Source: a virus
IMG/VR virus record: IMGVR_UViG_3300045988_093856
Location: 1-64,000 of that record
Length of the DNA stretch: 64,000 nucleotides
Strand: one strand, 5' to 3'
In this document: positions 1 through 53,335 of the stretch, piece after piece
Position numbering within the stretch: the first letter of the stretch is position 1
How the letters are laid out: each line of letters begins with the position of its first letter
Notes under the pieces: model-generated
Told to the model about the DNA's origin: nothing
Databases searched by the model: none
What the model saw: the letters and a program-made list of their open reading frames with translations, nothing else
Made by a program: the position numbers and the translations under genes

Positions 1-1600
1 GTGTTCCTGTAGACCACCCCACACCATTGGATTATCATGCTGCACGTTGCGTTCCACCCCCCCCCCTCAACCTTTTCTACACGGCAGATTCCCATGCTCT
101 GTGAGGTAATTGTGGGGCAAATATTACCGCCTCCCTGTACTCTCCCACGCCTTAATTCACTTGTGGGATAGGAGAAGTCGGCAACACCGCCAATTTCGCA
201 CTCTATGTACCCCTTATGGGTTGCTTGCCGTATTCCAACCATTTCTTTATCCATTTCTATATTTCCTTATCTCCAAAACTAAATTATCTTTTTGAACCGT
301 TGTGAGAGTATTTGATATTCCATCTGTCCTAGCCTCCAGCTTCGTCATATTGCCACGTTTCTCTTGGATAGCATGATTCTCATATAGTTTTCTGATTTGT
401 TTTCCGTATTCAGTTCTCACACATCGGCATATCGCAAATTCCTTATCCATTATTAGTCCTGATTTCCAAAACGTAATTATCTTTCTGTACGGAGGTAAGT
501 GTATTGCAGATTCCCTCAGAGTTCGGTTCTAACCTTTGTTCCGTAGGACTTCCGGCAGTTCTATCGGAGGGATTTGTAGGGTTTCTTCCCCTCGAAGCTA
601 CAATTATTTTCTCAATCACTCTTTTATCTCCACATCCATCTATTGTTCTTAAAGTCCCGCAACATCCATCCTTAAAAAATCGTATTCCTTCGTCTGATCT
701 TTCTTCACAGACAATGCGGTTTATTATTTGAGTGCCAATACCCCCCCCCGCACTGGTTTGCAGAGAGGATATTGCATAAATCTTTATCCTGATTTTGCAA
801 TATTATTTCCCTTTCCTCTGGTATTGACTATGATACAAGGTACAGTACCCCCCCACTCGTAATCGCCGGAGCAACCCCTTTGGTATCATATACCCTACCC
901 TGATTTGGATTGTCTCTCGTGGAAGTGGGGAGAATATTGCCTAACCTCTTTATTCCGGTCTGCAATATCTTTCTTCCTTTCCTTGGTTTCTAATATCTTT
1001 GGTTCTCTATTCCCCCCCCGCACGTATTCAGAGTTGGTGCAAGTCCATCTACTGAATACACTCTCCCGGCTTGGGGGTTGTCCCAATTCTTTCCTGCCAC
1101 AATATTTCCTAACTGTATGCAGCTTATTTTATTTGCCATATTACATTTCCTCTACCACATATTTGTTGTGCTTATAATCGCTCGCCAACAACGTAGGGCA
1201 AATCATTTTGTAGAGTGCTTTGTTGTAGGGGTCGTATATTCCACAAGCACTTTCGGAGGGTCTTTGTAATCCGTTGCCCTTATTGCTTGGCAAATACCCC
1301 CCCCGAGAGAACTCGGACTCTGTCCTGGACTTCCTTTTCTGGGTTCAGAGAGCCGATCACAATAATCTTGTCTGCCATCCATTCTGTCCTCCACTAATAC
1401 TTTTGGCGGGTCCTTGTAATCTGTGGCTGATAGAGATATTGATATTCCATCAGGGGACATTATGCGTCCTCTTTCTCCACCGGTTCCCGTATGAGCCACT
1501 ATTATAGGCCGGCTCATTGGGAATCCGGGCTATCTAATTCGTCAGAACCGCATCCCAATGATGCCTGTCTATCGAGCCTCTGCCCCCCCCCCCGAACCGT
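1..1600 (-). other. Array of >=9 tandem C5-methyltransferase TRD-like modules downstream of the catalytic core. It is spread over all three minus-strand frames and runs off the window at position 1.
   Basis: Hand translation of the minus strand gives these repeated TRD-type peptides: TVRGGG(R)GSIDRHHWD (~1540-1600); RIMSPDGISISLSATDYKDPPKVLVE (~1390-1470); RVRVLSGGGICQAIRATDYKDPPKVLVE (~1235-1320); IYDPYNKALYKMICPTLLASDYKHNKYVVEE (~1140-1235); QAGRVYSVDGLAPTLNTCGGGNREPKILE (~988-1080); NQGRVYDTKGVAPAITSGGG (~845-905); KIYAISSLQTSAGGGIGTQII (~723-788); IRFFKDGCCGTLRTIDGCGDKRVIE (~612-686); RGRNPTNPSDRTAGSPTEQRLEPNSEGICNTLTSVQKDNYVLE (~455-600); RTEYGKQIRKLYE...LEARTDGISNTLTTVQKDNLVLE (247-450); FSYPTSELRRGRVQGGGNICPTITS (~100-176). 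No motif IX/X (GN[AS]V) was seen, so the gene probably continues left of the window. Confidence 0.6.
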
Positions 1601-2512
1601 CTTAGACACCTTATCTAACTGTCCGCTTTCCCGGAGGTCTTTGATAAGTTGCTGTGCCTTTTCAGAGTTAATGTAATACTTCTCGTCAACTTCATCCTCC
1701 AAATAATCTTTCATGGTTTTATCAAGAGGTATCGGCTGAGGAAACTTAAAGTTGTAATCTCCGAGGATTGATACCATAAAACAACGCTCCCGGTTCTGTG
1801 CCACTCCGTAATCCTTTGCGTTGAGAATTTGTGTATAACACTTATATCCCTTTCCTCTCAAAAAGTCGCACCAACTATGGAAATCATCTATGTTTTCCGG
1901 GCTTACTACTTGTGGTACATTCTCCATGAGAAGTATTTGAGGGAGGCTTTCTGTTTCATTCAGAAGCCTTTCGACTTCCCACAACAAACCGGAACGTGTA
2001 CCAGACCCTTTTTTCATTCCTTTCATCTTTCCGGCTAACGATAAGTCTTGACAAGGGAATGAGTAAGTAAGTATGTAAGTAAACTTATCTGTTTCAACAA
2101 TCCCTAAATCCGATCCTTTGGCGGCCATAATATTGACGAGGTTGTGTGTGGATTTTATATTGTTGTAGCACTCTCTGCGCCATAGTTCTCCGTAAGAATT
2201 GCTTGCGATCTGTTTCCTTGTAAGAGGATTTTTCCCATCTACGGATATTCCCAAATTTGAGAGAATGTCGATCAGCTGCTCGTCCGTCAGGCCTGCGCTA
2301 TAATCCGTATTATCGTTTTCCATGTGAATTTGCTTATAAGATGCTGTCGCGTGTGTTTCCCATTCGCAAATAAGATAATGTTCAAACGGCACTCCCAACA
2401 CTTTCAAAGCCATCGCCTGGCTTCCGACTCCGGCAAATAATTCTATTAGTCGAACCGGGGAATTTACTTTATACGTTGGGTACATCAAATCAAACATTGT
2501 AATCTGATCCAC
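1514..2512 (-). CDS. dcm: DNA (cytosine-5)-methyltransferase, catalytic N-terminal part (motifs I-VIII). The ORF stops just after an 11-nt G-run.
   Basis: Motif I LFAGVGS, motif IV SFPCQDLS, motif VI LMENVPQ and motif VIII QNRERCFMVS. A reading with one G fewer in the run at 1583-1593 gives RGGGRGSIDRHHWDAVLTN*. Confidence 0.9.
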   Translation of the reverse strand: MDQITMFDLMYPTYKVNSPVRLIELFAGVGSQAMALKVLGVPFEHYLICEWETHATASYKQIHMENDNTDYSAGLTDEQLIDILSNLGISVDGKNPLTRKQIASNSYGELWRRECYNNIKSTHNLVNIMAAKGSDLGIVETDKFTYILTYSFPCQDLSLAGKMKGMKKGSGTRSGLLWEVERLLNETESLPQILLMENVPQVVSPENIDDFHSWCDFLRGKGYKCYTQILNAKDYGVAQNRERCFMVSILGDYNFKFPQPIPLDKTMKDYLEDEVDEKYYINSEKAQQLIKDLRESGQLDKVSKTVRGGGQRLDRQASLGCGSDELDSPDSQ

Positions 2513-2527
2513 TGGTTTTCTCCTTTC

Positions 2528-3052
2528 TTAGTTATTTCTGAAAACTGCATTGTTTTGTTGCCTGATATATATTCTCCGCTCCAGTGTTTTTTCAGAAGCG
2601 TTCGCATACTCCAAATTCTTTATGCTTGTTTCCTTGCATTTCTCGCATAATTTTCCACTTTCGATATGTATTCCGCAGCGATAACATCTGCCATACATAG
2701 GTCTTTCGGAGCGATCCATTCCATCCTTGCGTCTCTCATTCTTCCTTTGGTTTTTGATTCTGCAATCAATACACATACATGAAGAATTGATACTTTGAGG
2801 CTTCCCGCAGTAAATACAAAGTCCAGACGCTTTTCGCTGTTCCCTTAATTTTTTTATGTATGTTCGGTGTTCTCTGCGAATACTCTCTGTTTGCTGTTGA
2901 GATTGCTTTTCTCTTTGTTTACGCGAGCTTTCTGCATTTTTAGCAAGACATTCTTCACATCTTACTTTTCCTGGGGCGGCTTTATTCGTTCCGCACTGCG
3001 GACATATCCCCATTTCCTTGTACCACTGATAAAGTTCCTGATGCTCTTTCAT
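2528..3052 (-). CDS. Multi-CxxC zinc-ribbon protein, function unknown
   Basis: 174-aa ORF with at least 5 CxxC pairs and a basic linker; packed between neighbouring genes. Confidence 0.6.
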   Translation of the reverse strand: MKEHQELYQWYKEMGICPQCGTNKAAPGKVRCEECLAKNAESSRKQREKQSQQQTESIRREHRTYIKKLREQRKASGLCIYCGKPQSINSSCMCIDCRIKNQRKNERRKDGMDRSERPMYGRCYRCGIHIESGKLCEKCKETSIKNLEYANASEKTLERRIYIRQQNNAVFRNN

Positions 3053-9151: not shown

Positions 9152-9585
9152 TTATTTATTTTGTGTCTGCCTGACACGCATCACTACGGCAGGCAGACTA
9201 TTTATCATATCAGGGGTTATCGTTTTGCCCCCCCCGAAAAGGCTTCTCATAAACTCTGCAAATCCGTCTGCGTCCGGGTGTGTGCCGGTTTTCACGACTT
9301 CAAATCCGAACTTCTTCTTTGCCAGTTCACAGAATTTGGTTGTCTGCTCTTTCATAATGGGTTCAATGAGGCTGCTTGTTTCTCTGAACCATTCTTCTCC
9401 GCCCTCAATATCTTTGAGAAATCTCTTATTGCCCTCTACGTGGCATGATATTGAAGTCGGAGCAACTGTTACCTCTACCTTGAATGGATAAGTTCCGGGG
9501 CTGCCTTATCTCCGATAATACTTTTCAGGAGCATTGCTGCCATAAGAGCATCGAAGTCTTTTTCAAAATTATCTTTATCTGCCAT
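9152..9585 (-). pseudogene. Hypothetical gene split by an apparent 1-nt frameshift
   Basis: ATG at 9585 with GGAGGA upstream gives MADKDNFEKDFDALMAAMLLKSIIGDKAAPELIHSR*. The next frame is open from that point (..YPFKVEVTVAPTSISCHVEGNKRF...) into listed ORF 9152-9355. One extra base in CCCCGG (~9496-9501) would fuse them. Confidence 0.5.
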
Positions 9586-9599
9586 AGTGTGTATTCCTC

Positions 9600-11030
9600 C
9601 TACAATTCGATAACTGTCAAATCGTTATCATCCGTTGTTCTGGTTGCGATAAACTGCAATCCTTTGGCGCGGCACTTCTCGTAAAGACGATTGCGGTTTT
9701 CTTCTGAGAGTTTTTCTGTGCCGTCTATGAGAATGATCTGTAATCCTGCCGGATTCTGAATTGCTACATCAATGCAAAGGTCAAGTTTCTCTCCTTCTGA
9801 AAGGTTACTTACCGGCAATCCGTTGATAAGAGGTATTCCGTCTTTAACCGAAAGACCCTCAATCGGAATTTGGGCGGTTTCCAGAATGGTTCCCGGAAGC
9901 GATCTCGCAAGTTCAATCTTTTCTGTAAGACTTCTCGATTCTTCCTGCAGTTCCTCAACTTCTTTCTGGATAGAAAGCATACGCCGCCACTCATTGATAT
10001 GCCCTTTCATCTTCTCTGTTTCGTTTGCCTTTGCCAGTAATTCATCAACCGGCTTTGTCTCTTTGTCTGCATATTCAGCGTAAGAAGCCTGTTCCGCCTC
10101 ATATTTCGCAACAGAGGTTTCGTATTCAGACTCGATAACCTTGGTCTTGTCTGCCTTTATACCAGTAAGGCCGGCTTTCTTTTCCTCCAAGGCTTTGATA
10201 CGTTCACGCAGAGACGATAATTCACTCTCAATGTTCTTCTCTTCCTGACCCATTTCCCGATCAAGAGCTGCCAGTGCAACTTCTTTGGTTGCCTGAAAGC
10301 CTCGAATCTTTGCATCATGGCTGTCTCTGAGTCGTTGAGCTTTTTCGATGGTTTCATTCTCCTTACGAATCTGCTCGATTTCCGTGTAGAGTTCCGAAAG
10401 GTTTTCTTTCTCCCAACGTTCTCCATCGTAATCAATAGGCAGTGCCGCACCAATATCGGCAATAACAGCTTTCTTCGCCTTAATGTCGCGGTTCACATCC
10501 TGTCTGTGCATGAAGTAATAACCATTCTCTGCCTGAATATCATTCAGTACGGCCAAAATATTCTGTTCATAGTTCACATCCCTTGGAATCTCGCCAAACC
10601 ATTCTTTGATTGTTTCAAGACTCCAATCATACTGAATCATATCCAGAATGGTCGCATTTTGCGTTTTCTTATCCATTGAGATAAATTCCATAGGGGAAAG
10701 TTGTAATGGGGTAAAAATCGTTTTCAGAAAAGCCTCCGGGCTTGATACGACATTGCCATTCTGCTTTATTGATTTATAGTCCGTCATGGCTGCCCTTGCT
10801 TTTCTGTCGATTGAAAGACCGTTATCCATCTCAATATAGATTTCTCCCTCTGTTTCGCCATTCTTGATAATGTAATCGCGATCAGAAGAATTTGTGAGGG
10901 CATAACGGATTGCGTCAATTACAGAAGTTTTACCGGTTCCATTCTTGCCCGCAAGCTCTACGTTTTTCCCGTCTGCCTCATATTGAGAGATACCGAAAAG
11001 ACTTTTTATTTTGATTTTTGAAATCTTCAT
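9600..11030 (-). CDS. SMC/SbcC/RecN-like AAA ATPase
   Basis: Walker A GKNGTGKTS, a long coiled-coil middle and C-terminal LSEGEK...ILIDG (signature and Walker B). Start taken at MKISKIK. Confidence 0.75.
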   Translation of the reverse strand: MKISKIKIKSLFGISQYEADGKNVELAGKNGTGKTSVIDAIRYALTNSSDRDYIIKNGETEGEIYIEMDNGLSIDRKARAAMTDYKSIKQNGNVVSSPEAFLKTIFTPLQLSPMEFISMDKKTQNATILDMIQYDWSLETIKEWFGEIPRDVNYEQNILAVLNDIQAENGYYFMHRQDVNRDIKAKKAVIADIGAALPIDYDGERWEKENLSELYTEIEQIRKENETIEKAQRLRDSHDAKIRGFQATKEVALAALDREMGQEEKNIESELSSLRERIKALEEKKAGLTGIKADKTKVIESEYETSVAKYEAEQASYAEYADKETKPVDELLAKANETEKMKGHINEWRRMLSIQKEVEELQEESRSLTEKIELARSLPGTILETAQIPIEGLSVKDGIPLINGLPVSNLSEGEKLDLCIDVAIQNPAGLQIILIDGTEKLSEENRNRLYEKCRAKGLQFIATRTTDDNDLTVIEL

Positions 11031-11056: not shown

Positions 11057-11560
11057 CTATTTGCCGTGTTCTACTTCCAACTCTGCCGCCCTCTCAGATA
11101 CTTCAATCGCATAATCTGAATAATCTCCGCTTTCCCACCGACTATTTGCCGTTGAGGTTTTGAGATTATAACGCATGAGGACATAATAGAGATCATCCCC
11201 TCTGCCGCTTTGAATGGCTTCGTCAAAGAGTTCTGCCAGATAATCAGTCCCAACAAGAATATTGGAATACGAATCATACAAATTTGTTACTTCGAGTTCT
11301 TCCATCCTGTCGGCGTGCCACCTTTGGCTGACTTGCATAAGCCCTATGCAATTTCCATTTTTGGCGTATGGGTCGTAACTGCTTTCCCTCTCGATTATTG
11401 CCTGAATAAGCTCCGGGCAGATATTGTACTTTTCTCCGATTTCAACGGTGTATGCCTCAATATCGCTACGAGGGGGGGTGTTTTTAGTTTGTGCGCTTGT
11501 ACTTATTACCGGAATGAAGAACATAACGGAAATAAGGAGTATTGATAATTTGCGTTTCAT
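11057..11560 (-). CDS. Secreted lytic transglycosylase (SLT domain)
   Basis: Signal-peptide-like MKRKLSILLISVMFFIPVISTSA and the catalytic pattern IIERESSYDPYA...GLMQV. Confidence 0.75.
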   Translation of the reverse strand: MKRKLSILLISVMFFIPVISTSAQTKNTPPRSDIEAYTVEIGEKYNICPELIQAIIERESSYDPYAKNGNCIGLMQVSQRWHADRMEELEVTNLYDSYSNILVGTDYLAELFDEAIQSGRGDDLYYVLMRYNLKTSTANSRWESGDYSDYAIEVSERAAELEVEHGK

Positions 11561-52747: not shown

Positions 52748-53335
52748 TTATTTACCCCCCCCCACAGTGAGAAGATCGTCATAGATTGCCTTGATTACCT
52801 CGGCATCGTACAATGCGTTGTGTTTCTGACCTTTCGGCAAAGAAATTCCTCTATTTGTCAGCAATTCCTCTCTCGAAAAGTCAAAAGCCTCTGCCTCTGA
52901 TATATCCAACACCATTGCAATGTCCTGGGTAATATCATGGCAAAACGGATTGATATAATCCGGCAGCAACACCGCTCCGTCCGCAAGCAGATCACACAGT
53001 AGAACCATATCGTAGTGACATACATCGGACACAAACTGAATATCATCCTTGAAGTTATCGAGCCATTCGAGCAATTCCACTCTCACATCGTTTTTGCTTC
53101 CAAGAACAACCGTTGTCATGCCGTCCTCTCCAAGCGTTTTTGCAAGTTCCTCATTCCCACTCAGGATCAGATGGTCGAGTACATTCTTCTCAATCCATTC
53201 GTCACACTGCGTATCATCAAAATCCGTCAGCTCTGCGTAGAAGCGTTCCCCCTCGTCTGAGATAAAACCGATACTAACAAGGGTTGTCCCTTTGTGGAGC
53301 CCGGTAAATTCTGTGCCAAAGAATATTCGTCTCAT
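52748..53335 (-). CDS. DEDD-type 3'-5' exonuclease
   Basis: FFGTEFTGL (Exo I) and HNALYDAEV (Exo III, DEDDh). Confidence 0.7.
   Translation of the reverse strand: MRRIFFGTEFTGLHKGTTLVSIGFISDEGERFYAELTDFDDTQCDEWIEKNVLDHLILSGNEELAKTLGEDGMTTVVLGSKNDVRVELLEWLDNFKDDIQFVSDVCHYDMVLLCDLLADGAVLLPDYINPFCHDITQDIAMVLDISEAEAFDFSREELLTNRGISLPKGQKHNALYDAEVIKAIYDDLLTVGGGK

Follow-up and report, generated by a model that had tools for sequence, protein, structure and literature searches.

Multispecific methylases of phages were already known in the 1980s, and cytosine-5 (C5) DNA methylases of this kind are reportedly encoded by Bacillus phages (M.SPRI, M.Phi3TI, M.Rho11sI, and M.H2I, the enzymes associated with Trautner, Noyer-Weidner, and Walter). 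Bacteria have methylases that are switched by repeats, and the tail-fiber genes of Campylobacter phages have polyG switches. Here, we analyzed positions 1 to 64,000 of IMG/VR virus record IMGVR_UViG_3300045988_093856 (this whole 64-kb stretch is referred to as the window) and focused on a locus on the minus strand at its left edge. We consider it fairly likely that positions 1 to 2512 of the window contain most of a split multispecific phage C5 methylase, consisting of a catalytic open reading frame (ORF; alpha), mini-cistrons for target recognition domains (TRDs), and a C-terminal ORF (beta), with modules that are switched by polyG tracts. A preliminary description of the same DNA had pointed to six long G-runs in this locus and had suggested that it might be a slipped-strand contingency locus.

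The Bacillus-phage enzymes and the window locus are alike in that both are phage encoded and combine one core with several tandem TRDs located between motifs VIII and IX, and both presumably serve to protect the phage against more than one restriction system of its hosts. The exact layout was found in the uninterrupted relatives P0067, P0088, P0090, and L035, and about nine TRD-like modules were present in tandem in the window. However, the Bacillus-phage enzymes are single polypeptides without repeats, whereas the window array was not readable as one polypeptide and had hypermutable tracts.

M.AquI and M.EcoHK31I are C5 methylases made of two polypeptides, and complementation between C5 methylase fragments is documented; in M.AquI, alpha carries motifs I to VIII along with a portion of the variable region, and beta carries the remainder and motifs IX and X (PMC3404938). 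The catalytic ORF of the window likewise ended within the variable region, and relatives had a separate ORF containing a TRD and motifs IX and X. The difference is that M.AquI has two subunits and one specificity, whereas here up to about eight extra TRD-only cistrons appeared to lie between alpha and beta.

Phase variation of CpG-specific C5 methylases has been described in Mycoplasma, with a poly(G) tract of 6 to 11 G in M. agalactiae and poly(GA) in M. pulmonis and M. crocodyli (PMC9465063). These enzymes belong to the same class as the window methylase (M.MpeI was the best solved relative of alpha), the length of a mid-gene repeat determines whether the product is full-length or truncated, and sister lineages of the window used (GA)n at the equivalent place. 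The Mycoplasma systems are cellular and have one tract and one specificity that is turned ON or OFF. In contrast, the system examined here is viral and has four to eight tracts per locus, and the tracts are in different TRD modules that are probably separate cistrons. In the phasevarions of Haemophilus, Neisseria, Helicobacter, and Campylobacter, simple-sequence repeats (SSRs) switch Type III mod, Type I hsdS/hsdM, and Type IIG methylases (e.g., PMC4889913). An SSR in a methylase ORF and stochastic methylation switching, which is predicted here, are the points of likeness. Phasevarion methylases, however, are bacterial N6-adenine enzymes that usually have one repeat per gene and act as gene regulators, whereas the window locus encodes a viral C5 enzyme with many switches and a presumed anti-restriction role. 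Hypermutable polyG tracts have also been reported in Campylobacter phages (Sorensen et al. 2021, Cell Rep 35:109214, cited in PMC12823448). The likeness lies in phage polyG tracts, in several genes per genome, and in phenotypic subpopulations, which are predicted here. The differences are that those tracts belong to genes for receptor-binding proteins and that the phages are lytic myoviruses with a Gram-negative host, whereas here DNA-modification genes carry the tracts and the phage is temperate and infects Lachnospiraceae. In the literature searched, we came across no account of multi-TRD phage methylases that bear polyG tracts.

The alpha ORF was the N-terminal two thirds of a DNA cytosine-5 methyltransferase. 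It contained motifs I (FAGVGS), IV (FPCQDLS), VI (ENV), and VIII (QNRERCF) in order, it matched PF00145 at profile positions 32 to 214 of 324 (E=6e-46), and its best match among solved structures was the CpG methylase M.MpeI (E=1e-34), with M.HhaI also matched. In all three frames, alpha stopped 4 to 23 codons past the first tract, which is the layout of an M.AquI-type two-subunit enzyme, and the beta ORF of the window was off the edge. Specifically, a tblastn search of the window with the beta ORF of L081 for motifs IX and X produced no match, and the array ran off the left edge. In L081, which was the closest relative found (N-terminal ORF 93% identical, flanks 92 to 96% identical), beta was a separate ORF of 132 aa at positions 10086 to 10484 that contained its own TRD, motif IX (RKLTPKEYWRLMDF), and motif X (GNSIVVNV) and matched PF00145 at profile positions 237 to 322 (E=6e-12). 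Beta ORFs were also found in L004, L058, L063, and L077.

From alpha to the window edge, we found about nine short modules with the pattern xKIIVxG..QxGRVY..G.xPTLT..GGG..PKILVE. Five of the modules aligned to the variable region (motifs VIII to IX) of uninterrupted multi-TRD relatives with E values of 1e-10 to 1e-25; the uninterrupted multi-module relatives were P0067 (574 aa), P0088, P0090, P0046, and the 667-aa ORF of L035. Because the modules aligned to this multi-module variable region, we regard them as TRDs of a multispecific methylase. The counterpart of the last module, S7, in P0067 (residues 421 to 475) was located directly ahead of motif IX. A search of the PDB with a module (GRVYSVDGLAPTLNTCGGGNR) yielded a weak, nonsignificant match to residues 306 to 326 of the M.MpeI TRD.

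The six plus-strand C-runs listed in the preliminary description were recovered with exactly the same positions and lengths, and the corresponding G tracts, all on the minus strand, were numbered T1 to T6 (Table 1). The rest of the 64 kb had just three G/C runs of 7 or more nucleotides (9228 to 9235, 11472 to 11478, and 52755 to 52763). When overlapping occurrences were counted, GGGGGGG was present 23 times, versus 4.95 +/- 2.63 times in shuffles that preserved dinucleotides (0 of 100 shuffles reached 23), and 17 of the 23 occurrences were within the first 1.6 kb. The minus-strand product of all six runs was Gly-Gly(-Gly). Among the 11,955 codons of the window's other genes, GGG was used for Gly less often than any other Gly codon (14%), and none of the 45 Gly-Gly dipeptides outside the array was encoded by GGGGGG. 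The locus had the long mononucleotide repeats within coding sequence that are typical of SSR systems, namely, six G7 to G11 tracts in 1.6 kb. The earlier claim that each run encodes the conserved GGG of one module was only roughly right: T3, T4, and T5 followed a T-L-type motif (PTLNTCGGG, PAITSGGG, and ILSANQCGGG), whereas T2 preceded the motif (RVLSGGGICQAIRATDYK), T1 was in the tail of the catalytic ORF (TVRGGGRGS), and T6 was in the linker after a module. The uninterrupted ORF of L035 encoded the same Gly run as TGC GGT GGT GGT GGA, with no homopolymer. The use of homopolymers to encode Gly is a derived trait that is confined to these sites; mixed Gly codons were found in distant uninterrupted relatives only, and the close relatives varied in tract length. 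The combination of mixed codons and constant lengths, which the preliminary description had named as a refutation, was therefore not what the homologs showed.

To describe this variation, we compared 80 IMG/VR loci plus L081 to L083, a set that included one Logan contig and one isolate prophage. Orthologous tracts were grouped by single-linkage clustering of their flanks; strict ungapped flank identity and short-query BLAST missed most of them. A comparison of relatives had been proposed in the preliminary description, and it revealed clear run-length polymorphism. The same tracts were found at the same places in about 50 independent, related viral contigs from IMG/VR, the Logan contig, and the isolate prophage, with lengths of 6 to 12 G (Table 1), and the same array layout was present in the isolate genome of Diplocloster hominis CSJ-3. 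Loci L019 and L022 had 0 substitutions in about 2.5 kb, yet 4 of 6 tracts differed; L024 and L029 had 1 substitution and 3 differing tracts, and L039 and L074 had 2 substitutions and 4 differing tracts. Because near-identical pairs differed mainly at the tracts, the rate of change per tract was orders of magnitude above the per-site substitution rate. The tracts are hypermutable and are not miscalls, and their polymorphism between near-identical genomes supported the idea of a slipped-strand contingency locus.

The product of each tract length was derived in silico, and the frames were checked against the conserved ones. In the case of T1, the assembled length of 11 G yielded a nonconserved 22-aa tail with a TGA that overlapped the next ATG (ATGA), and 9 or 12 G yielded AEAR followed by a stop; the conserved tail frame was supported by the synonymous changes AGG>CGG and CTG>TTA. 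For T2, a length of 7 or 10 G connected S2 to the alternative module M3' through a linker, and a length of 8 or 11 G truncated S2 (GGVFAKQ followed by a stop). The T2 states in relatives were 17 ON, 12 alternative, and 23 off. In the case of T6, a length of 9 or 12 G led to a stop within seven codons, and the assembled length of 10 G led to a frame that ended within about 20 codons in L081 and L004. The joined T3 reading aligned across the tract to uninterrupted P0067 (62% identity, E=3e-15), and the joined T4 reading also aligned to P0067 (47% identity, E=2e-12). In silico, the length changes shifted the ORFs between full-length and truncated forms, and the ON readings were backed by homology and selection.

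These frame assignments agreed with the preliminary description for T1, which needs one G fewer (10), and for T2 and T3, which each need one G more (9). For T4 and T5, the earlier account had to be revised. One G fewer had been suggested for T4, but this direction was wrong: one G fewer leads to SGGYCTLYHSQYQRKGK and a stop, and GGGTVPCIIV requires one G more (8, or 5). T5 had been described as in frame; the conserved upstream half (QNQDKDLCNILSANQC) was one base out of register with the downstream IGTQIINRIV..., and 8 or 11 G are needed to join them. The upstream frame that had been followed at T5 was a nonconserved one, with a position-3 substitution share of 0.29 versus 0.48. For T6, homology with L081 and L004 indicated that 8 or 11 G joins the frame of the C-terminal methylase ORF and that 10 G does not. 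As assembled, all six tracts, rather than four, were at frame breaks, and all six were in nonjoining states.

Stop codons were present in all three frames of every inter-tract segment, so no combination of tract settings produced one ORF, and we ruled out a single ORF formed through tract-length changes alone. The layout was not that of an SPR- or phi3T-type single polypeptide, and the frame changes at the junctions were kept in more than 50 relatives. To follow the reading frames, substitutions between the window and its homologs were tallied by position modulo 3. The wobble phase shifted exactly at the module borders, and these jumps, together with the stops, bore out the earlier remark that module junctions also change frame away from homopolymers. 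The position-3 share was 63 to 96% for the longer modules, B3, and B5, compared to 0 to 17% for overlapping read-through frames; it was weaker for the short alpha tail (0.45), S5 (0.48), and B4 (0.29), the last of which is too short for a signal. The codon-position counts were phylogenetically nonindependent, and the pattern was uniform. Because the homologs already share the scrambled frames, the selection acted in each module's own frame. The substitution patterns point to purifying selection on each module in its own frame and on both sides of its tract, with weaker signals for B4, S5, and the alpha tail.

The start signals were conserved as well. An ATG or TTG codon was kept at seven module starts: S1 (54/54), S2 (57/57), S3 (54/54), S4 (TTG; 57/57), S5 (TTG; 17/17), S6 (12/13), and S7 (45/45). 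A purine-rich, Shine-Dalgarno-like motif was located 4 to 18 nucleotides upstream of six of these starts (for S2, in 57/57 homologs), and the seventh start, that of S1, was in an ATGA overlap with the stop of alpha's as-assembled frame. The junctions were conserved and of the stop/start type (GAGGAA ATG TAA T ATG; AATGGATAAG). The modules are best read as separate cistrons with their own start codons, and a frameshift in one of them need not abolish the others because each would be translated from its own start.

Table 1. Features of the window methylase locus, with substitution counts for coding segments and ortholog length counts for tracts
Feature	Position	Strand	Description	Substitutions at codon positions 1/2/3, or tract length (G):number of loci
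Alpha	1514-2512	minus	Catalytic ORF, DNA cytosine-5 methyltransferase; 332 aa as assembled, conserved coding to 1595	3794/2598/11045
T1	1583-1593	minus	G11 (TVR-GGG); 10 or 13 leads to the conserved tail RGSIDRHHWDAVLTN and a stop	6:2, 7:10, 8:22, 9:15, 10:5 (54 loci)
S1	1389-1517	minus	Complete TRD-like cistron, no tract (MSRPIIVAHTGTGGERGRIMSPDGISISLSATDYKDPPKVLVE); as assembled, the ORF continues to 1203	228/4/1064
S2	1307-1378	minus	First half of TRD3 (MADKIIVIGSLNPEKEVQDRVRVL); GGAGGA upstream of ATG	123/65/548
T2	1297-1304	minus	G8, predicted three-state switch; 9 or 12 joins S2 to B3 (TRD3)	7:4, 8:20-21, 9:16-18, 10:8, 11:2-3, 12:1-2
B3	1239-1295	minus	Second half of TRD3 (ICQAIRATDYKDPPKVLVE); codon-position bias	9/2/236 (overlapping alternative frame, 0% at position 3)
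M3'	1144-1242	minus	Alternative TRD-like module (GIYDPYNKALYKMICPTLLASDYKHNKYVVEEM, then stop); without its own start codon, access via T2 only	304/67/915
S3	1020-1139	minus	First half of TRD4 (MANKISCIQLGNIVAGKNWDNPQAGRVYSVDGLAPTLNTC); GAGGAA, then stop, one nucleotide, ATG	420/255/1163
T3	1012-1019	minus	G8; 9 joins to NREPKILE, 81 aa (full TRD4); 8 and 7/10 stop within 1-6 codons	6:5, 7:20, 8:14, 9:10
B4	988-1011	minus	End of TRD4 (NREPKILE); BLASTP vs P0067, P0046, L035, P0090	
S4	855-965	minus	First half of TRD5, TTG start in ATATTGCAG ((M)QTGIKRLGNILPTSTRDNPNQGRVYDTKGVAPAITS); purine-rich Shine-Dalgarno motif	161/63/688
T4	848-854	minus	G7; 8 (or 5) joins to TVPCIIV (full TRD5); 7 and 6/9 stop after 6-15 codons	6:2, 7:24, 8:9, 9:18
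B5	826-846	minus	End of TRD5 (TVPCIIV); codon-position bias	2/9/90
S5	750-800	minus	TTG start in ATATTGCAA ((M)QNQDKDLCNILSANQC); homolog in L004	
T5	741-749	minus	G9; 8 or 11 joins S5 to L (118 aa); 9 and 7/10 stop within 4-11 codons	7:8, 8:2, 9:4 (14 loci)
L	464-739	minus	Long module (IGTQIINRIVCEERSDEGIRFFKDGCCGTLRTIDGCGDKRVIEKIIVASRGRNPTNPSDRTAGSPTEQRLEPNSEGICNTLTSVQKDNYVLE); ORF stop at 443-445; 71-87% identical to variable regions of P0090, P0046, P0088	607/452/2220
S6	271-450	minus	Complete TRD-like cistron, no tract (MDKEFAIC...GISNTLTTVQKDNLVLE); ATG overlaps preceding stop (ATGGATAA); matches L035, P0067	308/215/1193
S7	69-254	minus	Module (MDKEMVGIRQATHKGYIECEIGGVADFSYPTSELRRGRVQGGGNICPTITSQSMGICRVEKV); ATG overlaps preceding stop; 65% identical to P0067 residues 421-475	421/73/1485
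T6	57-66	minus	G10, linker after S7; 8 or 11 leads to the frame that in relatives enters the C-terminal ORF	6:1, 7:11, 8:11, 9:20, 10:6 (49 loci)
Linker to beta	1-56	minus	Start of linker towards the C-terminal (beta) methylase ORF; beta itself is beyond the left window edge	

We propose that the locus is broken into short, translationally coupled cistrons: alpha, which would supply motifs I to VIII and a short recognition tail; at least seven TRD mini-ORFs; and, outside the window, beta, which would supply a further TRD and motifs IX and X. A polyG tract encoding Gly-Gly-Gly is located in most of the TRD cistrons, in the alpha tail, and in the linker into beta. Slipped-strand mispairing at replication would add or remove G's, and the length change would toggle a cistron between a full-length (ON) and an early-terminated (OFF) form; at T2, a third state would swap in an alternative TRD. 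Because a shift anywhere in a single ORF would cause the loss of motifs IX and X and kill the enzyme, it is the splitting into cistrons that would make independent switching possible. A phage population would then hold many combinations of specificities and in this way hedge its bets against the different restriction systems that its hosts carry. Under this model, the TRD mini-proteins would be active and work together with alpha and beta, each TRD may confer a distinct specificity, and the methylation specificity would change with the tract lengths.

A stronger version of this model is a combinatorial switchboard, in which one catalytic and one C-terminal subunit are served by free-standing TRD mini-proteins of 45 to 120 aa, each toggled independently by its own polyG tract, with a T2-type choice between two TRDs and with up to 2^n methylation patterns that one phage lineage would keep producing; a sister clade may also need a CCA-UAA-GA-CCU hop across an 8-nt insert. 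We put this version forward tentatively and regard it as rather less than an even prospect. If TRD-only subunits did act in trans, they would be a new type of subunit for C5 methylases.

Several observations weigh against the split, polyG-switched methylase. The ON fractions in relatives were 0.22 to 0.28 for T1, 0.33 for T2 (plus 0.23 in the alternative state), about 0.29 for T3, 0.15 for T4, 0.13 for T5, and 0.19 for T6. These values are near or below one third and no better than random, and the window was all OFF, so the consensus sequences gave no sign of selection for ON. The proposed slippage and switching within populations rest on assembled sequences, and many of the loci compared were closely related to one another, so the locus counts are not independent. 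Pfam searches with single modules produced no match, and the C-terminal ORF lies outside the window. Finally, we know of no enzyme with a TRD-only subunit and of no precedent for a TRD-only peptide, without motifs IX and X, that acts in trans on a C5 methylase core.

We also weighed explanations in which the tracts or junctions have other roles. The first is that the main effect of the tracts comes about on the RNA or at the ribosome, through stuttering of RNA polymerase or slippage of tRNA-Gly on G GGG GGG, and that the DNA polymorphism is a by-product. A tRNA-Gly can re-pair perfectly in any frame on an all-G run, T1 and T2 have two or three usable frames downstream, and ON lengths were not enriched in the consensus DNA, all of which would fit. 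However, large variation at the DNA level was observed directly, the known cases of transcriptional slippage favor A/T runs, and past T3, T4, and T5, two of the three frames stop within 1 to 15 codons, which means that output from multiple frames adds little. We consider this explanation unlikely as the main one; slippage at the RNA level is compatible with DNA-level switching and may add leakiness to it.

A second possibility is that programmed recoding at the junctions generates one long multi-TRD polypeptide and that the start codons are incidental. Seven of the eight nontract junctions need a +1 shift, Shine-Dalgarno-like motifs are located just upstream, as in prfB, and recoding seems to be required at motif IV of a sister clade (CCA TAA GA CCT TGC), where selection kept both sides. 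On the other hand, no canonical -1 or +1 slippery sites were found at the module junctions, and each junction has a conserved start at a proper Shine-Dalgarno spacing and a stop in the upstream frame. Translational hops at the junctions were considered and rejected: the window has ATG TAA T ATG and ATG G ATG, but relatives have CTA TGA A ATG and GTA AAT GGC, so matched take-off and landing codons are not conserved. In addition, at least eight successive events would leave a negligible yield, and we judge recoding of the whole array to be quite unlikely.

The prospects are similarly poor for the proposal that the internal modules are a silent store of cassettes for recombination into alpha- or beta-proximal positions. 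Module content does differ between near-identical phages (2.46 to 3.16 kb from the alpha start to the beta end and four to eight tracts), and the window modules S5 with T5, part of L, and S6 were missing from L081. The junction sequences are repeated (VLEIR..NG and a stop, followed by MDKE; ATATTGCAG) and could mediate the gain and loss of modules. However, purifying selection at the protein level, the Shine-Dalgarno motifs, and the start codons argue for translation, and tracts inside silent cassettes would have no role.

It is very doubtful that the array is a decaying pseudogene in which tract variation is neutral drift without function. The six tracts of the window were indeed all OFF, ON fractions in relatives were no higher than one third, and stops and frame changes were numerous. 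Nevertheless, the substitutions that postdate the scrambling were mostly at third positions, including downstream of the tracts (see B3, B5, and L in Table 1), the start codons were retained at all seven module starts, the architecture persisted across lineages that are just 50 to 90% identical, and the homopolymer coding of Gly was derived and site specific. The least credible explanation is homopolymer miscalling or misassembly of a truly intact multi-TRD gene, which the preliminary description had named as its alternative: long G runs are error-prone on some platforms, and lengths in a single assembly need reads to verify, but variation in relatives and selection in each module's own frame ruled it out, no tract lengths lead to one ORF, more than 50 independent assemblies, one of them an isolate genome, kept the frame changes at nonhomopolymer junctions, the lengths spanned 6 to 12 rather than +/-1, and platform error would not keep one G7 tract (T0, described below) constant in 39 of 46 loci while other G7 tracts vary.

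Returning to the split methylase with polyG-switched modules, the new element is a phage family that is common in the guts of humans, rabbits, and ruminants, infects Lachnospiraceae, and has the specificity modules of one anti-restriction methylase split into cistrons, nearly each with its own tract. To judge from the variable tract lengths, the virus can probably keep changing which DNA sequences are methylated and would in this way escape host restriction enzymes. If the modules are active, these phages would hedge against the diversity of host restriction by stochastic, heritable, and reversible changes in their methylation repertoire, and TRD subunits acting in trans would introduce a new modular principle to C5 methylases, one that could be useful for engineering programmable 5-methylcytosine writers. 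A cultured lysogen, Diplocloster hominis CSJ-3, exists.

The locus also matters for annotation. Nearly all of the best 120 protein matches to the alpha ORF ended at 290 to 380 aa (in Logan, ENA, JGI, and NCBI alike). Automated annotation will systematically treat "truncated" 290- to 380-aa methylases of this kind as fragments; if the modules are active, this would need correction, and it would be wrong to discard such proteins as products of pseudogenes or of faulty assembly. One cluster of 313-aa proteins, a length equal to that of the window's frame ending in AEAR, had 1396 member sequences.

The window contained genes for an integrase, RecT, a replisome organizer, an SPP1-type portal, and a tape-measure protein and is from a temperate siphovirus-like phage of Lachnospiraceae. 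Relatives were located in Lachnospiraceae metagenome-assembled genomes (MAGs), and the isolate Diplocloster hominis CSJ-3 carried one as a prophage (on NZ_JAWDIY010000002.1). No exact matches to three window proteins were on record, and a megablast search of GenBank phages with window positions 1 to 2600 gave no match. A tblastn search of GenBank phages matched Dulem virus 39 alone, which has an uninterrupted 527-aa methylase (54% identity).

More distant relatives had tracts or repeats of their own. L077 (50% identity) and L082 (75% identity; a rabbit MAG) had their own sets of eight and seven polyG tracts, respectively, in frame-hopping mini-ORFs. Loci L057 to L071, L075, L078 to L080, and L091 to L094 had no polyG; instead, they had (AGAGC)n of 13 to 82 nt at the linker between alpha and the TRD, about +742 from the methylase start. 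This repeat was read as RAEQSRAEQS, and its length determined whether the catalytic ORF ended in either of two alternative TRDs in different frames or was truncated. The rest of the locus in these lineages was a single beta ORF of 176 to 294 aa, which was the sole second cistron in L058 and L063. In L001 to L003, a 25-nt (GA)n read as ERERER was likewise located at the linker (+994 from the methylase start) and had the same three outcomes for the catalytic ORF, and these loci kept further frame-hopping mini-ORFs with four G8 tracts; P0009/P0010 also had (GA)n in this role. Thus, sister lineages reach the same logic through penta- and dinucleotide repeats, and the distribution of the repeats indicates that repeat-selected TRDs arose several times among relatives of the window methylase.

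The sister clade mentioned above had an 8-nt insert (TAAGACCT) at the catalytic Pro-Cys motif in 48 related loci, including the isolate prophage (L015:6454-6469, L083:6455-6470, and 46 others); the insert was not present in the window. In the context TTT CCA TAA GA CCT TGC CAG, the reading is F P stop, followed by P C Q in another frame, and the downstream half had no start codon. Polymorphism in this clade by codon position was 1/0/23 upstream and 10/4/57 downstream of the insert, and in-frame stops were absent. FPCQDLS would be restored exactly (peptide ...TYSFPCQDLSLAGK...) if tRNA-Pro hopped from CCA past the UAA to CCU, which may make the insert a candidate for natural translational bypass. 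A hairpin was predicted around the insert and was not better than those of shuffled sequences (z = 0.15). The same clade had an extra polyG tract, T0 (AATGA-G7-TGATCT), in the catalytic domain about +395 nt from the methylase start (e.g., L015:6395) and 60 nt upstream of the insert. Unlike the other tracts, T0 was nearly fixed at its in-frame length: 39 of 46 loci had 7 G, whereas the isolate prophage L083 had 8 G. The near-constancy would be accounted for either by selection for ON or by a less mutable sequence context.

Further polyG tracts were found downstream of the array, outside the window (L081:11163, 11228, 12747, and 16298, with homologous sites in 6 to 39 loci). They were located in adjacent early genes of related phages, which encode a PAPS-reductase-like protein (two tracts), a PemK-like protein (with codon 25 as the site of the GGG), and an MT-A70 adenine methylase (G11). 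These tracts were also length polymorphic, with one cluster showing 7:2, 8:10, 9:26, and 10:1 (G:loci), and a whole group of contingency genes thus appears to be present in the DNA-modification and counter-defense region of the phage.

Two of the other G runs in the window were also in coding sequence on the minus strand. The G8 at 9228 to 9235 encoded FGGGK in a small ORF between an AAA_23/SMC-like gene and recT and was in frame both in the window and in L081, which also had G8. The G9 at 52755 to 52763 was in the last five codons (TVGGGK, then a stop) of a 195-aa 3'-5' exonuclease-like ORF (PF16473). It directly preceded the GGAGGG Shine-Dalgarno sequence and ATG of the next gene, and every frame ended within a few codons; the tract could affect translational coupling rather than the exonuclease-like protein itself.

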